A DNA stretch of 64,000 nucleotides from the NCBI GenBank assembly GCA_905233915.1, contig CAJOFM010000006.1, positions 16,873-80,872 on the forward strand. The letters are read 5' to 3'. Positions 29,775 through 39,999 of this stretch are shown here, in pieces. The translations under genes were made by a program, and so were the position numbers. Every line of letters begins with the position of its first letter. Position 1 is the stretch's first letter. The notes under the pieces are model-generated. The model saw nothing but the letters and a program-made list of their open reading frames with translations, made no database searches and was not told the origin of the DNA. Source of the DNA: an uncultured Muribaculaceae bacterium (GTDB lineage: Bacteria > Bacteroidota > Bacteroidia > Bacteroidales > Muribaculaceae).

Positions 29775-30761
29775 ATGAAGGTAAAAAATTTACTTCTTTT
29801 TGCAGCTGCCGCAGCCTTGAGCGCAACCGCAATGGCTCAGGATCTGAAGACCGGTGAGTATGCTGTTCAGAATGACGGTAGCCCCGCCATCATTGGTCAG
29901 TGCGTACAGGACCACCTCTTCGTACGTAACGATTATGACGATCAGGGTGAGACCAAGACCTATGACAACGTTATCAGCTTCAAGACTGGTACTCCTCAAG
30001 TCGTAGCTTTCTTCCTTGATGACCGTGAAATCTACAACAATGCCGAGGTTCAGGCTCTGACTCCTGTGCCCTGCACAGATGGTGGTAGCGAGCTCTATAA
30101 GGAGATCACTTACAACTCAGCTCAGTTCGACATCTATCTGCCCATGACCATGTCGCTGATTAAGTACAAATTCCCCGGTGAGAAGCGCGCTATTGAGGCT
30201 CAGGCTGGCGATCGTCTTCCCTATGACGCAAGCATTTCTTGGTCCAAGAAGGATAACACCAAGACCATCGACGGTATTGAGTACAATGTTTACACTGTTC
30301 TGATCACCAACCAGAAGAACGACGCTTGCCACTTCTCTGGCAACGAGGACACCTATGCTGACAATGAGGGTGCCCTGATGATGGACGACGCTCCCCTGTT
30401 CAAACTGGCAGTCGAGAACGCTAACCAGGCTGAGGTTGAGGGTCACCTCGCTGACATGATCATTGCTAACCAGGAGTTTGGTATCCGTGAGGCCAACATC
30501 AATTGGGGTACTGATCCCAACAAGTGCCGCTACATCTATGGTACTGGTGGTAACAACGTTGAGCAGCGCTTCCAGCTCTACAACCGCGTAAGCCTCTATG
30601 GCAGCAGCGCCGTTGTTGAGAACCTGGCCGAGAAGACCATCAAGAGCGTACGTTACTACAACATCGCCGGTATGGAGAGCGAAGTTCCCTTCGAGGGTGT
30701 TAACATCAAGGTGACCACCTACAACGATGGTACCAACAGCACCTGCAAGGTGATCAAGTAA
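29775..30761 (+). CDS. Secreted protein with a cohesin-like core and T9SS-like CTD
   Basis: Signal peptide ending ATAMA; AQFDIYLP...YTVLITN...FSGN...LFKLAV; CTD IKSVRYYNIAGMESEVPFEGVNIKVTTYNDG...KVIK; strongly biased codons. Confidence 0.8.
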   Translation: MKVKNLLLFAAAAALSATAMAQDLKTGEYAVQNDGSPAIIGQCVQDHLFVRNDYDDQGETKTYDNVISFKTGTPQVVAFFLDDREIYNNAEVQALTPVPCTDGGSELYKEITYNSAQFDIYLPMTMSLIKYKFPGEKRAIEAQAGDRLPYDASISWSKKDNTKTIDGIEYNVYTVLITNQKNDACHFSGNEDTYADNEGALMMDDAPLFKLAVENANQAEVEGHLADMIIANQEFGIREANINWGTDPNKCRYIYGTGGNNVEQRFQLYNRVSLYGSSAVVENLAEKTIKSVRYYNIAGMESEVPFEGVNIKVTTYNDGTNSTCKVIK

Positions 30762-30785: not shown

Positions 30786-30817
30786 AAAAAGCCACGGGCA
30801 AATGCCTGTGGCTTTTT
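30786..30817. terminator. Bidirectional terminator
   Basis: aaaaagccacgggc-aaat-gcctgtggcttttt. Confidence 0.85.
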
Positions 30818-30819
30818 CT

Positions 30820-32700
30820 TTATCGTGTGCCGGGTAACCAGACGTCGCAAGCGAGTGACTTGTCGGGAGCAACCTGGCGAGGAACGACCAAGCCGTCCTC
30901 CATCAGCAGCAGACCAATGGCACGCGTCATCAGGATGTCGTCGTGTTTGCCCTGGCGGGCTCCGTAGCGTCCGCCACCCAGGTCCTGATAGTCACGCATC
31001 TCGTTCACCGCATCTTGGTCGCGCTCCACATATTTCCCGTCCCTGACCGCACCCACCAGTGCGGCAATCGCTTTGCCCTTTGTCTTGACATTGGTGTGGA
31101 AACCCAGTTTGTGAGGTGCGCGTTGATAGACGTTGCCATACACGCTGTACACCTTCTGCAGGATGTAATCGCTCTCCCCGGCACGCGCGGCCTCGTTGGT
31201 GAGCGTGTTGCTCTCAACGACAAGCAAGGCATTGTTATAAAATAAGGCCAACTGCATCGCTTTCCATGCCAGCATGTCGTGGTCGATGTGGCCGCGCCAC
31301 TGGGCGACGATGGCTGCCGGACGGACACCGCACGGCAGACGCCACACGGCAATCACCGAGTAGTCGCTGACCACACTCTTGCCACCCACATCCACCACTG
31401 CCATGTAACGTGCCGTGACCGGCCCATCCCGTTCAGGTTGTTCCCACACCTTGAGCAAGCCGTTGCTCGCTGCCACCAGATGAACGTTGACCTTCGCCCG
31501 GCTGCCGCTCAGCCCGTCGGCCTGGATATCACCAACAAACGATGGCGCAGCCACGCTTTGCCGCTCCATGCGGTCGAGATGCTCAGGTGCAAACGGGTTG
31601 CTACTTGTTGCCGTGAAGGCCTCGGTTGCCGTCGTGGGATATTCGGCCATCATGAGTGTCTGAGTATGATATTCCTTGCGTTTTTGATGATACCAGTTAA
31701 TCTGCTCCAGGGTGCAGCCGTTTTCCCACAGTTCACGCTCATAATCGTCCATCGCATCCCATAGTGCCTGCACATCATCCACCGGTTGACGATAAATCTC
31801 GATCTCATGCCATGGCACAAACAATGGTTCCTTGTCACTGCGCCCCATCTGCGCCCTTAACCACTCGTCATGGAAATAATTACCCACACCGTTTGCCGTG
31901 GACTCGAGCACGATAACCGTGTCGGGCTTGAGGGCCACACTGCCACACACGCTGCGCACCACATCGTCGGGGTTATGCATCGTGCTCGTTTTCCAGAAGG
32001 CCACTTCACTCAGGTGGGCCATCGAGATATCATAGCCACGCGCCATGTCCTCGCTGCGCGAACTCCCTGTGAGCACCAAGCAGTCCCGAGTTTCAATCTG
32101 CTGCACATTGGGTTGCCCCTCCAGCTTGGTAAAGCGCGGCGGGGCCTCCTCGTCGAGTAATTCCCGAGGATAATGACGCAGCAACAGGTTATACATGCGC
32201 TTGATGCTCTTACTGGTAACGTGCAAGTGACCGCAGATGAGGCTGTTCCAGCCCGTGTGCCTCACTATCTGCATCCATGCCATGTAGAGCTGCACCAGCG
32301 TGGAGCCACCCCACTGGCGGGCTTTTAACAGGATAACGCGCACGGGGCGGCCCGCCACGCGCTGTCCTTCCATCAGGGCCAGCAGCCTGCGTTGCGGGCG
32401 ATTGGGCACAAAAGGGATATTGCGGCTCAGGACTTTGTCCTTGATGGTCGCGCACCTCACGCACCAGAACTCAAAATCCTCCTGGATGCGGGCCCGATCC
32501 CGTGCCACCTCATCCAGCGTCAAGTAATCGGGGTGGTGTTCCAGCTCTGCCCGCGGCACCAGGCTGCCATCTACCTCTACCCTGTCTCCCCAGCACCCCA
32601 CGCCGGTCATCGGGTCATAAGGATTTCCCTCGAGTCGCGCCGTGCGCCTGCGGTTCTCTTCCAGGATTTCCTCTATATTATTATATAATGTGTGTTTCAT
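30820..32700 (-). CDS. terL: Phage terminase large subunit (orphan)
   Basis: ILLKARQWGGST (Walker A region), AHLSEVAFW (Walker B), VLESTANG (coupling motif), RNase H-like VVDVGG..SDYS and HDDILM. Confidence 0.85.
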   Translation of the reverse strand: MKHTLYNNIEEILEENRRRTARLEGNPYDPMTGVGCWGDRVEVDGSLVPRAELEHHPDYLTLDEVARDRARIQEDFEFWCVRCATIKDKVLSRNIPFVPNRPQRRLLALMEGQRVAGRPVRVILLKARQWGGSTLVQLYMAWMQIVRHTGWNSLICGHLHVTSKSIKRMYNLLLRHYPRELLDEEAPPRFTKLEGQPNVQQIETRDCLVLTGSSRSEDMARGYDISMAHLSEVAFWKTSTMHNPDDVVRSVCGSVALKPDTVIVLESTANGVGNYFHDEWLRAQMGRSDKEPLFVPWHEIEIYRQPVDDVQALWDAMDDYERELWENGCTLEQINWYHQKRKEYHTQTLMMAEYPTTATEAFTATSSNPFAPEHLDRMERQSVAAPSFVGDIQADGLSGSRAKVNVHLVAASNGLLKVWEQPERDGPVTARYMAVVDVGGKSVVSDYSVIAVWRLPCGVRPAAIVAQWRGHIDHDMLAWKAMQLALFYNNALLVVESNTLTNEAARAGESDYILQKVYSVYGNVYQRAPHKLGFHTNVKTKGKAIAALVGAVRDGKYVERDQDAVNEMRDYQDLGGGRYGARQGKHDDILMTRAIGLLLMEDGLVVPRQVAPDKSLACDVWLPGTR

Positions 32701-32702
32701 TT

Positions 32703-34721
32703 CTAAGTCCGTTTTGGTTTCTCCAGCGAGTACAGCAAGGTGGGGAGAAGCAGGCTACCCGTTTGGGCCTCGCCAGTCACGGCAAGGCGCAAGGTGCGTG
32801 ACTGCACCGCCATCGTGGGCGACGCCAGAGGCTGCTCTACACGGCCCTCAACGGTTGTCACACTCACGTCACTGTCTTGTGCCATGATGCCACGCTGTCC
32901 CGTGACACGCAGCGTGAGCGAGACCTCCTCCCCCGACACATGCCACACGACCCGATGCACCGCCTGTCCCATCAACGGATGCAAGGCAACGGGGTGCGAA
33001 CGCCACTCAACGGGCATTAGCCCCGCTTGCTCCTGTTCCAGGTCAAGCACGTCACCTGTAGGCGCCACTGCCACGGCATGGCGCGGGTCACTATAGAGCT
33101 GCGCCACGTCCACCGTGCGGCGGCTCATTGTGCCGCTCGCCATCATCACCATAGGGTCGCCCTCGGGCGGCAGGAGCCACAACTCGTCATGGGCATTGCA
33201 CCATGCCAGCGCACGATAAGCCACATCTCGCTGGCACACGGTGAGCCTCGAGCCGCTCAACCGGCACAAGTGGCCGTGACGCGACACCAGCCACACGTCA
33301 TGTCCCGCCTCGACAGGATGAACCGTGGCAGCAATAATGGTGCGGTCCACCAGGCGGGCTTCGCCCATGTGTCCCGTTGCCCCCTGAGGTATGGCATAGA
33401 TGCCGTCGTCGCTGAAGACATACACCGAATAACGCCCAAAACCGCCCGAGTACAACGGGCTGGTGACTACCGCCATGGCAATAGGCACCGTTCCCAGCAC
33501 AGCCCGTCGGTGCGCCTCAATCAAGGCATTGCCTGGAGCACTCACCACCACCTCGCCGCGGGAGTTACAGCAGTACAACCTGCCCGCCGCAACCGTCGAG
33601 CACACCACATCAGTCACACGGAACGGTGTGGCAATGGTGGCACACTGACTCGCCGTCAGCGTCAACGCTTCGACTGGAGCCGTGAAATCCTGGCTACCCG
33701 TACGAGCCGACGCTGGGGCCGTAGCAATGAGTCGCCAAGACGATGCCTCCAATTGATGCCCGATTGCCGTTGACGAGCGTCTGGTCAACCCCATCTCGAG
33801 GACATATTCACGACCGCCAGCCGTGCGCATCAGGCAACGGTAATCGAGTGCACGGCTCGACGACACCAGCTGAGCCTCGTCGGTAGCCAGCACGTCGATG
33901 CCCGCCACCAGCGGTTGCCACGCCTCGGGGATGGCACGCACCAGCGAGATGCCTAACAAATAACGTTTCAACGTCATCGCAGTGGCCTGGGTCCCCGTGA
34001 AACCACTGTTGTTGCTGTTCACCACAGCGCTGACGCGGTCGGCATTGGTCAACGTCTCGTCACCCACACGCACGGGGTCGCTCATCCACAGGTAGGAGCC
34101 GTCAATCAGTCGCACGGCCCACCGCACCAGCACGGGTGCCGTGCGAAAGCCCTCGGCACGGGCATCGGCGTTCAGCGTGTTCCATGCCGAGCGGATCAGA
34201 GTGGAATACACATTGATGTCAGCATCGGCCAGCGGCGCCTGCCAATGGCTGTAAGGGCTCTCAAATGTCACTGCGGGGATGTCGGCACTGGTTGTGTTCA
34301 CGTTTGCCGTAAAAGCCAACGTGGGTATGGCATCGGCTGGATCCATTCTTTGCCAGCCATCATCGGCGAGCAGTAGGTAGGTCAATCCTGTAGTGGCGAC
34401 GATGACGACAAAAGGCCCCACGACATGGGCGCCCACAATAGTGCCGTCAATCGTCACGCCATGGGCACCATCCAGCTTCACCATCGAGCCGTGGCAGGTG
34501 ATCATGTGACCTGCCGCCAACGTCAACAGGCGGTCGTCCTCGGGCACCTGCCCCACCCTGACGGGCAGTCCTGTCACTTGCAGGGATTGTTCCCGTTCCC
34601 TGATGTTCACTGCCGCAACGGCCTGGCCAGGCCGGGCCGCCTCACCGTTGGCGAGCGCCACAGCACCCCGAGGCACGATGCGGATCTCTCTCATGTTTCT
34701 TTTTCTTCTCGTGTTTTTCAT
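32703..34721 (-). CDS. Hypothetical protein resembling Bacteroidetes phage virion-stabilisation/tail-tubular proteins (start 34721 or 34694)
   Basis: Stop is 2 nt from the terL start; beta-rich; the N-terminal G....A.N.R...L pattern recalls P22 gp10/T7 tubular-B-like proteins (by eye only). Confidence 0.55.
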   Translation of the reverse strand: MKNTRRKRNMREIRIVPRGAVALANGEAARPGQAVAAVNIREREQSLQVTGLPVRVGQVPEDDRLLTLAAGHMITCHGSMVKLDGAHGVTIDGTIVGAHVVGPFVVIVATTGLTYLLLADDGWQRMDPADAIPTLAFTANVNTTSADIPAVTFESPYSHWQAPLADADINVYSTLIRSAWNTLNADARAEGFRTAPVLVRWAVRLIDGSYLWMSDPVRVGDETLTNADRVSAVVNSNNSGFTGTQATAMTLKRYLLGISLVRAIPEAWQPLVAGIDVLATDEAQLVSSSRALDYRCLMRTAGGREYVLEMGLTRRSSTAIGHQLEASSWRLIATAPASARTGSQDFTAPVEALTLTASQCATIATPFRVTDVVCSTVAAGRLYCCNSRGEVVVSAPGNALIEAHRRAVLGTVPIAMAVVTSPLYSGGFGRYSVYVFSDDGIYAIPQGATGHMGEARLVDRTIIAATVHPVEAGHDVWLVSRHGHLCRLSGSRLTVCQRDVAYRALAWCNAHDELWLLPPEGDPMVMMASGTMSRRTVDVAQLYSDPRHAVAVAPTGDVLDLEQEQAGLMPVEWRSHPVALHPLMGQAVHRVVWHVSGEEVSLTLRVTGQRGIMAQDSDVSVTTVEGRVEQPLASPTMAVQSRTLRLAVTGEAQTGSLLLPTLLYSLEKPKRT

Positions 34722-34776
34722 GTCATTTGGTTTTATTGTATAAAAAAGTGAGCACGCGCTCATTTGTATTGTCCTG

Positions 34777-34784
34777 CAAAAATA
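34777..34784 (-). promoter_or_regulatory. -7 promoter element for the phage-like pair
   Basis: TATTTTTG on the minus strand, CTTG 21 nt upstream, located after the upstream gene's terminator. Confidence 0.55.
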
Positions 34785-34810
34785 CGTTATCATCCATCAC
34801 TCCCGCAAGT

Positions 34811-34847
34811 ACAAAAAGCAAGCAGGCCGTGCCAAAGCACAGCCTGC
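34811..34847 (-). terminator. Intrinsic terminator of the dockerin gene
   Basis: GCAGGC-C-GTGC-caaa-GCAC-A-GCCTGC followed on the minus strand by TTGCTTTTTGT. Confidence 0.75.
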
Positions 34848-34876
34848 CGCTAATCTTTTTTCAAAAAACTGTCGCG

Positions 34877-36055
34877 TTAGTTACTCAGCACAATAGAGAT
34901 CAATGCTGTAACGTCAGCCACATTAATTGCACCTTCAGCATCTCCGTTTACGTTTGCCTCTTCAACAAAGAATGGTTCAGGCTCATTACCCAGCACATAC
35001 TGGATCAAGGCAGTCACATCGGCCACGTTCACAAAACCATCGTGGTTAACGTCGCCCAACTCGAAGCTAACGCTTGAAGGTACTACAAACGTTGAGCCAT
35101 CGGTATAATACAGGCGGTTATCGGTCCAGCCCGACCAAGTGCGGGCACGGTTCCAGGGCATCGTAGCTCCCCAAGTGATTTCCTCCTGATTGACAGCACC
35201 AGTGTTGCCACCAGCAATGTCACCGCCGTTATCGGTAGCGTTATACCACACACCCATACCGCCGGCTGCAGCCTCGTCGGGAATGTCACGCAGCATCTGC
35301 AGGGGATAGGTCATCGTGCCGTCGCTGTTCAAGATCATGGCAATCTCGGGGGCACCATAACCATAGATGTTGGTCACATACACGGTGTCGCCACTCTGAC
35401 GGATGCACACATCCACCATGCGGGCCTCACCAGTGGCCACATCGGTAAACTCATGCTTGCCATTGGGCACCAGAAGCTTCAGGTCGCGGAAGATGCGTGA
35501 CACATCGGCGGTCTCGTCGGTAAAGGTGCGGCTCTCGCCGTTACGGCCAGTGATGGTCGTGGTCTTCACCGTCTCGATATAGTAGGCAAAACCGCCAGGG
35601 ATATGGATGTTGTCGTTGGCGTCGACCACACCCTGAACATCGGCCAATTCTCCGCCAGTAATCCACTCCTCATTCACCACATAGAAGTTCTGCACGCTGT
35701 CCACCCTGGTGATGACACCGTCATTCTCGATGGTGGTTGTGCCCATTACTGAAGCAAACGGATTGTCGCTCGTGGCGTCGAGCGTCACTGTGCCCGTGCG
35801 GTAGTCGATCTGCAACGGCTGGGACACCTGATAGAGCGTGAGTCCATTGCGGGCTACCAATACGTCACCCTCGGCCGACGGCTGCATGATTACCGTCCAG
35901 CCACCATAATAATAGGGGTCAGCCTCGCTGATAGTCACAGCGCCCGTCGTGGACTCGTTCCAGTTATACAGATGAAACATGCTGATGCGGTTCTGGGCCA
36001 TTGCCGTCAAGCACACAAGCACGCTCAAGATTGCGACAATATTTCTCTTACACAT
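34877..36055 (-). CDS. Secreted protein with C-terminal type-I dockerin
   Basis: Signal peptide ending LTAMA; GDVNHDGFVNVADVTALI and ANVNGDAEGAINVADVTALI. Confidence 0.85.
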   Translation of the reverse strand: MCKRNIVAILSVLVCLTAMAQNRISMFHLYNWNESTTGAVTISEADPYYYGGWTVIMQPSAEGDVLVARNGLTLYQVSQPLQIDYRTGTVTLDATSDNPFASVMGTTTIENDGVITRVDSVQNFYVVNEEWITGGELADVQGVVDANDNIHIPGGFAYYIETVKTTTITGRNGESRTFTDETADVSRIFRDLKLLVPNGKHEFTDVATGEARMVDVCIRQSGDTVYVTNIYGYGAPEIAMILNSDGTMTYPLQMLRDIPDEAAAGGMGVWYNATDNGGDIAGGNTGAVNQEEITWGATMPWNRARTWSGWTDNRLYYTDGSTFVVPSSVSFELGDVNHDGFVNVADVTALIQYVLGNEPEPFFVEEANVNGDAEGAINVADVTALISIVLSN

Positions 36056-36104
36056 AATATAAATAATGTACTGTTATAAAGATGATTTCATTTCAAACTG
36101 CAAA

Positions 36105-36218
36105 GTTACGTATAAACGAGAGAAAAGCAAAAAGAAAAATTGTTTTTTATTTTTGCTTTTGCGAGTGCCAGTAACTTCGGCGAAGCCAACGTTACGTATA
36201 AACGAGAGAAAAGCAAAA
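36105..36218 (+). repeat. 28-nt direct repeat x2 (period 86 nt), Bacteroidales intergenic element
   Basis: GTTACGTATAAACGAGAGAAAAGCAAAA at 36105 and 36191, with TAACTTCGGCGAAGCC between the copies. Confidence 0.75.
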
Positions 36219-36273
36219 GGAAAACTCGTTTTTTATTTCAGAGTATTCAGATGATTCAGTTGTTTGATACAAC

Positions 36274-36305
36274 AAAGAGGCCAGGCTTGAAGCCTGACCT
36301 CTTTT
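36274..36305 (-). terminator. Intrinsic terminator
   Basis: aaagagg-ccaggct-tga-agcctg-acctctttt. Confidence 0.7.
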
Positions 36306-36350
36306 ATTCATTGGACCGGAATTGCTTCCAGCCTGTTTTATCGCAACTGA

Positions 36351-38075
36351 TTATTGGTTGAGAACCAACTGGATCAGAGCGGTAACGTCAGCAACGTTGA
36401 GGACGCCAGCGGCATCGCCGTCACAGTTAGCCTGCTCTACATAGAATACCTCGGGCTCCTCGCCAGAAGTCAAGACGAACTGGATCAGAGCGGTAACGTC
36501 AGCAACGTTCACGTTTTTATCGTGGTTAACGTCACCAAGCTTCCAAGTCTCAACAGGCTCGGGCAAAGTCAGAGGAGCGTTGAAGGTCAGCTTGTTGTTC
36601 AGCCAGCTTGCCAAGTAGCCATAAGCCAGGTGCAGGTAATCATCCTCCTCGGTGGTGTACATATTATAGATATCGGTAGCTGCCCAGGTGATCTCGGTCT
36701 TGTCGGCGTTCAGCTCGCAAGGAGTGTCATCCCAGCTCCAGCCGGTCATATAGTAACCGTTAAGGCCTCCCTCGTTGTAGAGGGCATAGGTAGGAGCGAA
36801 GTTAACGAAGGCATCGGTCATGGTAATACCGTCCTGATTATAGGCGCTCATGTCCTCGTGGTAAACGGGCTGCCAGGGGAAGTTAACCAGACCATCGGCA
36901 TCGAGTGAGAACTCTACACCAGGATAGTTAGACAGACCAAACAGGTTCCAAGCAAAGATGGTGTCACAAGCCTGGTTCTGATACATGAAGACGGGAACTT
37001 GTACTTCAGGAATAATGGAGTCCTTAAGAACTACATTGTATGTGCTATCGTCAACAGTAACGCTTACAGTGTGAGGATCAACATTGGGCTCATAGGCCTG
37101 ATCGAAGGTGTGAGTAGCATTAGGCAACATAAACATGTTGTCGGTGTACACGGCGTTTCTATATGAAGTCGAGTCGCTGACAGTCATGGTGTAGGTCCAA
37201 CCATACTGGGCAAACAAATCCTGGTATGTGTTCAAATAGAATGCCATTTGACGAACATTTGATGAGGAAGACGAAGTACCAACACCTAATGCGTTAGCAA
37301 TAGCATTATAGTTGGTCCTGGAAATACTGATCGTCTTGGTCACTTGAGCCTCGATGGGGCCGAAGGGCTTGTCAAGCTCGATCATGCCATAGTCCCAATT
37401 TACAACACCATGAGAAACATTGCCAGCGAGTTCGCCATTCTCATCACCGATACCGGTGTACCAGTAGCGAGCGTTAATGGTATAGGTGGTGTTACCATTC
37501 CTTGTTGCAGCCAGAGGATAGGTGTACATCCAGCCACCAAAGATGCCGATGCTGTCGGTTGCAGGCTCATACCATGCATAGCAATCGGGGAAGTCAGTGT
37601 AATGACCCGGATCGTACTGCGTGCCAGAACCATCAGGGTCAGTCATGAAGGGCATAGCACCCAGGTAAACCTCGCAATAACCACGATCCTCAAAGATGGT
37701 GTCGATCTTGAAATTCAAACCAGCGATGCCATACCAAGTGGGAGTTGTCTCGCCATTGGTAATAACATTCTCGATGCTGCTGTAGATCCAGTTGCCCTCG
37801 ATGTCGGTGTAGGTGCTGGCGCGACGGGGAGCGCGGTTCATCAGCGTGTTCTGGCTCAAGTCATGAGTCTTTACAAACTCATTGAGGGTTTTAGCCTCGC
37901 TAGCCTTAACCATCTTGTTGGTCAGGTCCTTGGCCAGCGTGTTGGTCTTGAACAACTGAGCTCCTCTTTCGAGCTGACGCTGCTGCATCTTAGATGTGTT
38001 TACGTGATGCACGGGATTGATAGCCATGGCGGTCAGTCCAGCGCACACAAACAAAAGTGCAAATAATTTCTTCAT
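36351..38075 (-). CDS. Secreted protein with C-terminal type-I dockerin (574 aa)
   Basis: Signal MKKLFALLFVCAGLTAMA; GDVNHDKNVNVADVTALI and ANCDGDAAGVLNVADVTALI; strongly biased codons. Confidence 0.87.
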   Translation of the reverse strand: MKKLFALLFVCAGLTAMAINPVHHVNTSKMQQRQLERGAQLFKTNTLAKDLTNKMVKASEAKTLNEFVKTHDLSQNTLMNRAPRRASTYTDIEGNWIYSSIENVITNGETTPTWYGIAGLNFKIDTIFEDRGYCEVYLGAMPFMTDPDGSGTQYDPGHYTDFPDCYAWYEPATDSIGIFGGWMYTYPLAATRNGNTTYTINARYWYTGIGDENGELAGNVSHGVVNWDYGMIELDKPFGPIEAQVTKTISISRTNYNAIANALGVGTSSSSSNVRQMAFYLNTYQDLFAQYGWTYTMTVSDSTSYRNAVYTDNMFMLPNATHTFDQAYEPNVDPHTVSVTVDDSTYNVVLKDSIIPEVQVPVFMYQNQACDTIFAWNLFGLSNYPGVEFSLDADGLVNFPWQPVYHEDMSAYNQDGITMTDAFVNFAPTYALYNEGGLNGYYMTGWSWDDTPCELNADKTEITWAATDIYNMYTTEEDDYLHLAYGYLASWLNNKLTFNAPLTLPEPVETWKLGDVNHDKNVNVADVTALIQFVLTSGEEPEVFYVEQANCDGDAAGVLNVADVTALIQLVLNQ

Positions 38076-38954: not shown

Positions 38955-39717
38955 CGGGTTGAAGACCCGATTTCACAGAAAAACACCATGCAAGCGGGCA
39001 GTAGGCCCGCGCAGCTTGGTGCCAGGGCGCCAAGTAACAAGTGCGTCGAAGACGAACTTCAATCAGGTCAGTCTATAATCATTCCAATCCAGTCCAGAGG
39101 ACTCTATCATGGTCCTATACTCATCCTCAAATGTTTTCGCCTTGTGGTGTTCACGTTGATTGATGATATAGTTAATGATGACATCCTTTTCACGCTGACT
39201 GCAAGAGAATGCGCCGTACTCTTTACCCCATCCGCTGAATTGAGGGAAAAGAGCCTGTTGCCTGGCCCACTTGCTGCTGCCCTGTTTGACATCACGCACA
39301 AGATCACTCAACGCCATTGTGGGGGAAAGCTCAATAAGCATGTGAATGTGATTGCCTATGCCATTAATGCGATAGAGACGGCAACCACGGCTCTTGACAA
39401 TCGACCAAATATATCGATAAAGATGTTCACTAGTTTCATCGGGTATGGTCATCTGACGTCGATAGGTGTTGATGACAACATGAAATATGGAACTGACTGC
39501 ACTCATTCTTCAACTTGGTGTGAGGGTTGGAACTGCAAAGTTAAGATTTTTGTTTTTCCCATGCAAGTGCAGCAGGTTTGAAGTTCGTCTTCGACGCACA
39601 TTCACATCATCATCATTCACACCAAGCGTCGAACCCCGCTGGGGTTCTTGCATGGTGTTTGCACACAACGGCGGCACTTCGAGCCGCCAACCTCTTCGAG
39701 GTCACCCTTGCGGGTGA
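38955..39717 (-). mobile_element. Y1 HUH transposase locus with mirror-symmetric hairpin flanks (REPtron-like)
   Basis: Perfect 22-bp IR 39041-39062 / 39578-39599; 14-bp IR 38981-38994 / 39647-39660; several short hairpins on each side; no tnpB. Confidence 0.7.
39063..39506 (-). CDS. tnpA: IS200/IS605-type (Y1) transposase, TnpA/TnpA-REP-like
   Basis: FHVVINT, HUH motif NHIHML, KQGSSKW, W..EYGAFS, catalytic YIINQ.EHH; own TAACTTTG promoter at 39536-39543 (-). Confidence 0.9.
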   Translation of the reverse strand: MSAVSSIFHVVINTYRRQMTIPDETSEHLYRYIWSIVKSRGCRLYRINGIGNHIHMLIELSPTMALSDLVRDVKQGSSKWARQQALFPQFSGWGKEYGAFSCSQREKDVIINYIINQREHHKAKTFEDEYRTMIESSGLDWNDYRLT

Positions 39718-39921: not shown

Positions 39922-39999
39922 GGGCAGTTAGCGCAGTTGGTTCAGAGCATCTGCCTTACAAGCAGAGGGTCGGGGGTTCGAATCCCTCACTGCCCACCA
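39922..39999 (+). tRNA. trnV: tRNA-Val (anticodon TAC), CCA encoded
   Basis: GGGCAGT/ACTGCCC acceptor stem, anticodon arm TCTGC-CTTACAA-GCAGA, T-loop GGTTCGAATCC. Confidence 0.96.

Follow-up and report, generated by a model that had tools for sequence, protein, structure and literature searches.

Gene transfer agents (GTAs) and related viriforms, such as RcGTA of Rhodobacter capsulatus, BaGTA, VSH-1, Dd1 and VTA, are made from phage-derived head, packaging, tail and lysis genes that have become fixed in a bacterial chromosome. Such genes may be spread over several loci, are accompanied by no integrase or replication module, and are inherited vertically throughout a clade under purifying selection. 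The best-characterised of them, RcGTA, is siphovirus-like. A podovirus-like GTA, called the first of its kind, has been described from Faecalibacterium, a gut commensal of the phylum Bacillota (FpGTA; Borodovich et al. 2026, PMC12946183); it was characterised experimentally in that study, which reports high-efficiency GTA activity in the family to which Faecalibacterium belongs. The papers searched contain no report of a GTA in Bacteroidota and nothing relevant on a terminase or a portal of Muribaculaceae. Here we consider a pair of adjacent genes within 64,000 nucleotides (the window) of contig CAJOFM010000006.1 from the Muribaculaceae assembly GCA_905233915.1, the genome of a Sodaliphilus species. 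One gene encodes the large subunit of a terminase (TerL), the other a protein predicted to fold as a podovirus tail nozzle. We put at roughly 0.6 the probability that the pair belongs, as one locus among several, to a GTA-like particle system that is dispersed, domesticated and derived from a podophage.

The closest phage relatives are the temperate Bacteroides phages BS-TP4, BKO1-TP3 and BF1-TP2 (Gut Microbes 2025, PMC12694917). Their TerL proteins are 39% identical to that of the window, their portals are 35% identical, and the capsid protein of BS-TP4 (gp11) is 40% identical to a Sodaliphilus capsid protein. These phages differ in having complete genomes of 64-68 kb. Their lysis and regulatory genes, giant proteins and diversity-generating retroelement are all absent from the host loci. 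The gene set of Muribaculaceae is near-core in the family and chromosomally fixed, and appears, from sequence comparison, to derive from an ancient short-tailed phage similar to BS-TP4 or SU10. It shares with FpGTA a podovirus-like character and a gut commensal as host. It differs from RcGTA and the others named with it in its phylum, in its podovirus ancestor (with a capsid of the SU10 type and a nozzle of the T7/P22 type), and in being far more fragmented, into units of one to four genes.

Vertical inheritance of the pair

TerL is present in all 24 other species genomes of the genus and, in the family, in 187 of 201 genomes (146 of the 152 of high quality), representing 34 of 35 genera. The portal and the capsid protein are found as consistently: both in 24 of 24 within the genus, and in the family, the portal in 59 of 61 genomes and all 35 genera, and the capsid in 76 of 81 genomes and 34 of 35 genera. 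Of the 187 genomes bearing TerL, nearly all have intact reading frames. Roughly 600 species carry the signature LKARQWGG / HL[ST]EVAFW. The nozzle gene evolves rapidly and is detectable in 23 of the 35 genera, and where both it and TerL are detected, the two lie in most genomes 0-3 kb from each other, in any orientation. The locus of this pair and the locus of the head genes are separated by 100 kb to 956 kb on single contigs. One genome, 99% complete, lacks TerL, nozzle, capsid and portal, all four together.

In sixteen other families of Bacteroidales, each represented by one genome, neither TerL nor the portal was found. The capsid gene occurs in 8 of 150 genomes outside Muribaculaceae, in six of them at an identity (52-55%) like that within the family, so the gene set may predate the family or reach into sister lineages. 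In the genomes of three relatives the capsid gene is split or has in-frame stops, and in a fourth the same is true of the portal gene. These may be real pseudogenes or errors of metagenome assembly.

Selection on the pair is evident at both short and longer distances. TerL differs from its counterpart on a contig of the same species at 34 codons, 7 of them non-synonymously (dN/dS 0.07), and the corresponding value for the nozzle gene is 0.17. Against a relative whose TerL is 81% identical, dN/dS is 0.105 for TerL and 0.19 for the nozzle gene; values for the host genes on the flanks span 0.04 to 0.39. The pair thus resembles its host neighbors, and the dN/dS test suggested by the original prediction gave no sign of relaxed selection. 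Distances among TerL, nozzle and portal proteins follow those of the host marker MgsA (Mantel r = 0.87-0.92, p <= 2e-4) and follow one another (r up to 0.96, p <= 2e-4), and the correlation is present as well inside a distant subgroup. Two outcomes that the original prediction had named as fatal to itself, a patchy distribution and a full prophage at the same site in relatives, were both looked for, and neither was found. Instead, in the test of single-copy vertical inheritance that it had called for, the genes proved to be usually single-copy, syntenic in relatives and co-diverging with MgsA. The pair is inherited vertically under purifying selection; it is not the stump of a prophage.

A neutral, decaying remnant of a prophage formerly at the site would account for the presence there of just two phage genes. 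It would also fit the GC content of TerL, nozzle and portal, 58-62%, which exceeds the genome mean of 52% and lies in the 95th to 99.7th percentile. However, among 20 genomes with flanks from 37% to 61% GC, that of the pair tracks the host, almost always 2-12 points higher. The intact frames, the low dN/dS, the invariance of the catalytic motifs (described below) and the syntenic sites of relatives, none of which holds a fuller prophage, are likewise at odds with decay. We therefore regard a remnant as extremely improbable.

The two proteins

The identification of TerL is straightforward. The protein matches phrog_2 ("terminase large subunit") in PHROGs at 8e-17, and its sequence matches T4 gp17 among PDB entries. 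Its AlphaFold2 model (pLDDT, the predicted local distance difference test, 85) aligns by Foldseek to full-length T4 gp17 at E 2e-25, with TMt 0.61 and a root-mean-square deviation (rmsd) of 4.2 over the ATPase domain of gp17. Over the nuclease domain of RB49 gp17, TMt is 0.78-0.79 and rmsd 2.7-3.9. The next matches of the model are the TerL proteins of HK97, D6E, Sf6 and P22. Both domains expected of a large terminase are present, an ASCE P-loop ATPase (Walker A, Walker B with the catalytic glutamate, and C motif) and a C-terminal nuclease of the RNase H type.

The ATPase motifs depart from the textbook. The Walker A region, LLKARQWGGST, has no classical GK[ST], the lysine having moved to the start of the loop, and the Walker B region, AHLSE, has serine in place of the aspartate of T4 gp17 while keeping the glutamate. 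The coupling motif reads ESTANG, and the nuclease motifs VDVGG, ESNT and HDD supply the three acidic residues. Since these motifs are invariant across all relatives examined and identical in gp7 of BS-TP4, an isolated temperate phage, the deviant Walker motifs are best seen as a working variant of the clade, not as decay. The original prediction spoke of intact ATPase and nuclease motifs and no frameshift, and this stands: the motifs are all there, though Walker A and B deviate, and the frame of 626 amino acids is open.

A second TerL, 41% identical to the first, is encoded in the same genome on another contig, C15, outside the window. Its ATPase motifs are intact, and its nuclease residues have been lost, VDVGG and HDD being replaced by VITIGSES and ENQNL. 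Near it are a helicase-like gene (AAA_25), a primase-like gene (DUF6371) and the restriction-modification pair Dcm and EcoRII. The surroundings look like a small mobile or satellite-like island.

The second protein of the pair, which the original prediction had described as virion-like, was identified through a structural model. The AlphaFold2 model (pLDDT 90) is multidomain and beta-rich and includes a beta-propeller, as expected of a nozzle. Foldseek matches it at probability 1.0, with E from 1e-13 to 1e-8, to the podovirus nozzles of E1004, HRP29, T7 (gp12), SU10, Carin-1 and P22 (gp10), and all of the top 20 matches in PDB are chains of podovirus nozzles or tail hubs (E 1e-13 to 3e-7). The top match in BFVD has E 3e-30, and entries annotated "Tail tubular protein B" or "P22 gp10 DNA-stabilising" are among the matches there. 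The overall fold, with its propeller, is therefore shared with the nozzles of T7, P22, SU10, HRP29 and E1004, but sequence identity to them is only 7-10% and TM-scores are about 0.4, a low value attributable to the comparison of multidomain proteins as rigid bodies.

Sequence comparison gives much less. Neither protein of the pair has a match in Pfam, NCBIfam or PADLOC, so that the nozzle is without a Pfam family, and tblastn with it against 50,697 phage records returned nothing. It does match phrog_32516 at 4e-7, and its homologues from relatives give weak tblastn matches to BS-TP4 gp26, a "putative structural protein". The gene is present in a single copy in the genome. The possibility that the protein is a portal was considered and rejected: it bears no similarity to the portal of BS-TP4, and its fold is that of a nozzle. 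By its model, then, the partner of TerL has the fold of a podovirus tail nozzle (tail tubular protein B), which answers the question of its identity raised at the outset.

Partner genes and the layout of the loci

A search of the genome with proteins of the three Bacteroides phages as probes located partners of the pair on other contigs. Contig C1 carries a portal gene (477 aa; Pfam P22_portal, 6e-16; phrog_156, 3e-39), followed by a scaffold-like gene of about 99 codons. On one side of these are the gene for triose-phosphate isomerase and one for a leucine-rich-repeat (LRR) dockerin protein, and on the other an operon for acyl-CoA dehydrogenase and electron-transfer flavoprotein (ETF). Two open reading frames (ORFs) of 584 and 346 aa at this locus, at first labelled unknown, proved to be antisense artefacts of the genes for acyl-CoA dehydrogenase and ETF-alpha. 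The closest congeners have, after portal and scaffold, a 468-aa capsid protein of the SU10 type (PF17236) and a lysin (Peptidase_M15_3). The arrangement in other genera is scaffold, capsid, a protein of 180-204 aa in the position of an adaptor, portal, and a small protein.

This small protein, which has the motif ASRFFISE, is encoded immediately upstream of TerL in prophage-like relatives and is related to gp9 of BS-TP4, a phage in which the gene for gp9 lies two genes upstream of TerL. Owing to this position and this kinship, it is a candidate for the small terminase. The Sodaliphilus genome has a solitary copy of the family (153 aa) on contig C4, between AraC/efflux genes and two genes for C10-peptidase-dockerin proteins. 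The original prediction called for a search for scattered phage genes, and they exist: portal and scaffold-like genes on C1 and the gene of the small-terminase position on C4 in this genome, and the capsid and the M15 lysin in relatives.

Around the pair itself, there is little but host. As had been claimed, Pfam and PHROGs reveal no gene for an integrase, portal, capsid, lysis protein or small terminase within about 10 kb, and no direct repeats bracket the pair. The assertion that host secreted-protein genes occupy both flanks also held. On one side are genes for a signal-peptide protein, DUF6048, DUF6452, a GT2 glycosyltransferase, DUF4199 and a hybrid histidine kinase/AraC regulator, and on the other, genes for two dockerin proteins, outer-membrane beta-barrels and ApbE. 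The signal-peptide protein (328 aa) has no phage match, and nothing links it to the phage-derived set. The genus has six species genomes in which the whole neighborhood recurs in the same order, as it does on one closer metagenome contig. In more distant congeners, nozzle and TerL are together, in either order, amid genes for a P-type ATPase, a TonB-dependent receptor and dockerin proteins. No fuller prophage was seen at the syntenic site in any relative compared.

Could the pair instead belong to an active mobile element (a temperate phage, a satellite or an island like the phage-inducible chromosomal islands, PICIs) that inserts at many sites? Related TerL proteins, at 39% identity, do occur in real temperate phages, and the diverged TerL on C15 sits in an island with primase-like, helicase-like and restriction-modification genes. 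But no integrase, replication gene or att repeat accompanies the copy in the window, which is flanked on both sides by syntenic host genes and co-diverges with the host. Moreover, its partners lie on other contigs or, in relatives, hundreds of kilobases away. A mobile element is thus very unlikely.

The pair is laid out as a host transcription unit might be (Table 1). Its two ORFs lie on the minus strand of the window, the larger being 696 codons in its longest form. The actual start of the nozzle gene is probably the ATG at 34721 (672 aa) or that at 34694 (663 aa), because the longest ORF encloses the putative -7 box and homologues have a length of about 662 aa. Either choice agrees with the 670 aa given in the original prediction. 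That prediction also had the nozzle gene ending 2 nucleotides upstream of TerL (stop codon 32703-32705, ATG 32700), a box of the TAnnTTTG type of the pair's own downstream of a terminator, and a bidirectional terminator at the end, each of which was recovered, the box as a match to the consensus. The upstream hairpin would be an intrinsic terminator that insulates the pair from read-through, and the hairpin at the other end separates TerL from the convergent secreted-protein gene, their stops being at 30820 and 30761, respectively. The nozzle-TerL operon may therefore be transcribed as an insulated host unit.

Table 1. Positions of the nozzle-TerL pair, its putative transcription signals and other features named in the text (window coordinates unless a contig or locus is given)
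Feature	Position	Strand	Remarks
Terminator of upstream dockerin gene (putative)	34821-34848	minus	Hairpin, 12-bp stem with 8 GC pairs, then TGCTTTTTGT
Putative promoter, -7 box TATTTTTG	34777-34784	minus	Match to Bacteroidota consensus TAnnTTTG, from sequence
Tail-nozzle gene (predicted)	32703-34721	minus	Longest ORF 32703-34793
TerL gene	30820-32700	minus	626 aa; ATPase domain complete, RNase-H-like nuclease domain
Bidirectional terminator (putative)	30786-30817	.	14-bp stem, flanked by A run and T run; shared with convergent secreted-protein gene
Secreted 328-aa protein gene	29775-30761		Signal peptide
Dockerin genes beside the pair	34877-38075
Direct repeats, two of 52 nt	36101-36238		92% identical, 86 nt apart; intergenic, between two dockerin genes
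ORF of 114 aa	38230-38574		Looks spurious
IS200-type Y1 transposase ORF	38988-39581
tRNA-Val	39922-39999
Dockerin gene beside the portal locus	C1:227968-230628
Small-terminase-position gene	C4:120621-121082 (L203:6621-7082)		153 aa
Dockerin genes beside the C4 gene	L203:7734-12523
Second TerL gene	C15:97885-99696 (L025:9885-11696)		Outside the window

The transposase ORF and the tRNA-Val gene lie 4-5 kb from the pair, and it was asked whether they might mark a site of integration. In the nearest relative, however, the syntenic locus has the same flanking order, with a DJ-1/PfpI gene and no transposase gene between the genes for the outer-membrane protein and the dockerin protein; the two features are therefore unrelated to the pair.

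Genes for dockerin secreted proteins adjoin all three phage-derived loci in this genome. With about 140 dockerin ORFs in the genome, the chance of such adjacency is some 1e-3 to 1e-2, a rough figure calculated post hoc. In distant congeners, dockerin genes likewise adjoin the nozzle-TerL pair.

A probable GTA-like system and its alternatives

What might the genes do? The set retained in the family (scaffold, capsid, portal, nuclease-intact TerL, nozzle, lysin and the small-terminase candidate) is, judging by the gene content, what a DNA-filled short-tailed particle needs. A subpopulation of cells under host control would assemble procapsids; TerL would cut DNA and pump it through the portal; the nozzle would close and extend the portal channel; and lysis would free DNA-filled particles, making the whole a gene-transfer-agent-like viriform. 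The GTA-like reading is favored by the genomic hallmarks of GTAs: the set occupies several chromosomal loci, includes no integrase and is passed on vertically. No module for integration or replication accompanies these phage-derived structural and packaging genes, which have been handed down under purifying selection across the clade. The pair does not fit the profile of a prophage, intact or remnant (a contiguous genome or fragments of one at a single site, with an integrase or att sites, patchy occurrence and, if defective, relaxed selection). The original prediction had seen here a packaging module that was domesticated and not a decaying prophage, and that belonged either to a dispersed GTA-like system or to a phage-interference function; partners, inheritance and dN/dS all support domestication and the first of these roles.

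There is also a hint that host DNA is packaged in particles, the only one of its kind: a preprint (10.64898/2026.07.08.737213, 2026) describes uniform, unexplained coverage of Muribaculaceae (Duncaniella) contigs by DNA from virus-like particles.

Several observations weigh against a GTA-like system. That coverage is also compatible with membrane vesicles or transduction. Neither the capsid gene (SU10_MCP, PF17236) nor the M15 lysin gene was found by tblastn or with the PF17236 profile in this assembly, which is 93% complete, so the particle gene set expected of a GTA (capsid, portal, terminase, tail and lysis) is not complete here; in congeners it largely is, with capsid, portal, TerL, nozzle and lysin. 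Either the set is incomplete in this species or the unassembled portion, roughly 7% of the genome, may contain the missing genes. Host genes directly follow portal and scaffold in six independent conspecific assemblies, in which the portal protein is identical, and no match to this genome was found in the flanks of any of 71 metagenome capsid loci. A tail fibre, a holin and a regulator were not identified, nor was an adaptor found in this genus. In the family at large, there are partial losses, of TerL in two genomes and of the capsid gene in another. Finally, the formation of particles, the packaging of host DNA and its transfer are inferred from the genes.

Some of these observations lend weight to the idea that the pair was domesticated for a role other than transfer: a lysis-coupled killing or decoy particle, interference that diverts or blocks the packaging of invading podophages, or DNA handling independent of a capsid. 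Within the species, TerL, nozzle and portal are still kept by purifying selection (w = 0.07-0.17), yet no capsid gene was found; a few other genomes have partial sets as well; and the dockerin surface-protein genes beside all three loci might be taken as a clue of this kind. Set against this, about 95% of the genomes in the family retain as a set the genes for a DNA-filled particle, the models of defence systems in PADLOC give zero matches, and this assembly may simply have missed the capsid gene. We consider a non-transfer role possible, and clearly the less probable account. Less likely still is one particular version of events, in which capsid and lysin have truly been lost from this lineage and TerL, nozzle and portal serve in a job that needs no capsid. 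They may, for example, form a device in which the terminase drives export or import of DNA through a gate of portal and nozzle, or a decoy against phage packaging. If so, this would be a second step of exaptation atop a GTA-like system that extends throughout the family.

Muribaculaceae are among the most abundant bacteria of the mouse gut and are common in the guts of ruminants and humans. If the family does own a particle that packages DNA, it would be the first GTA-like system in Bacteroidota, and it could account for unexplained bacterial DNA in the virus-like-particle fractions of gut samples. Since the pair and its partners are conserved host genes, pipelines that analyze viromes or call prophages should not score them as prophage signal. 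The lineage considered here, with motor, nozzle and portal kept and no capsid gene found, offers a natural experiment. For the family as a whole, a GTA-like system, if real, would constitute an uncounted route of gene flow in a genetically tractable model microbiome.

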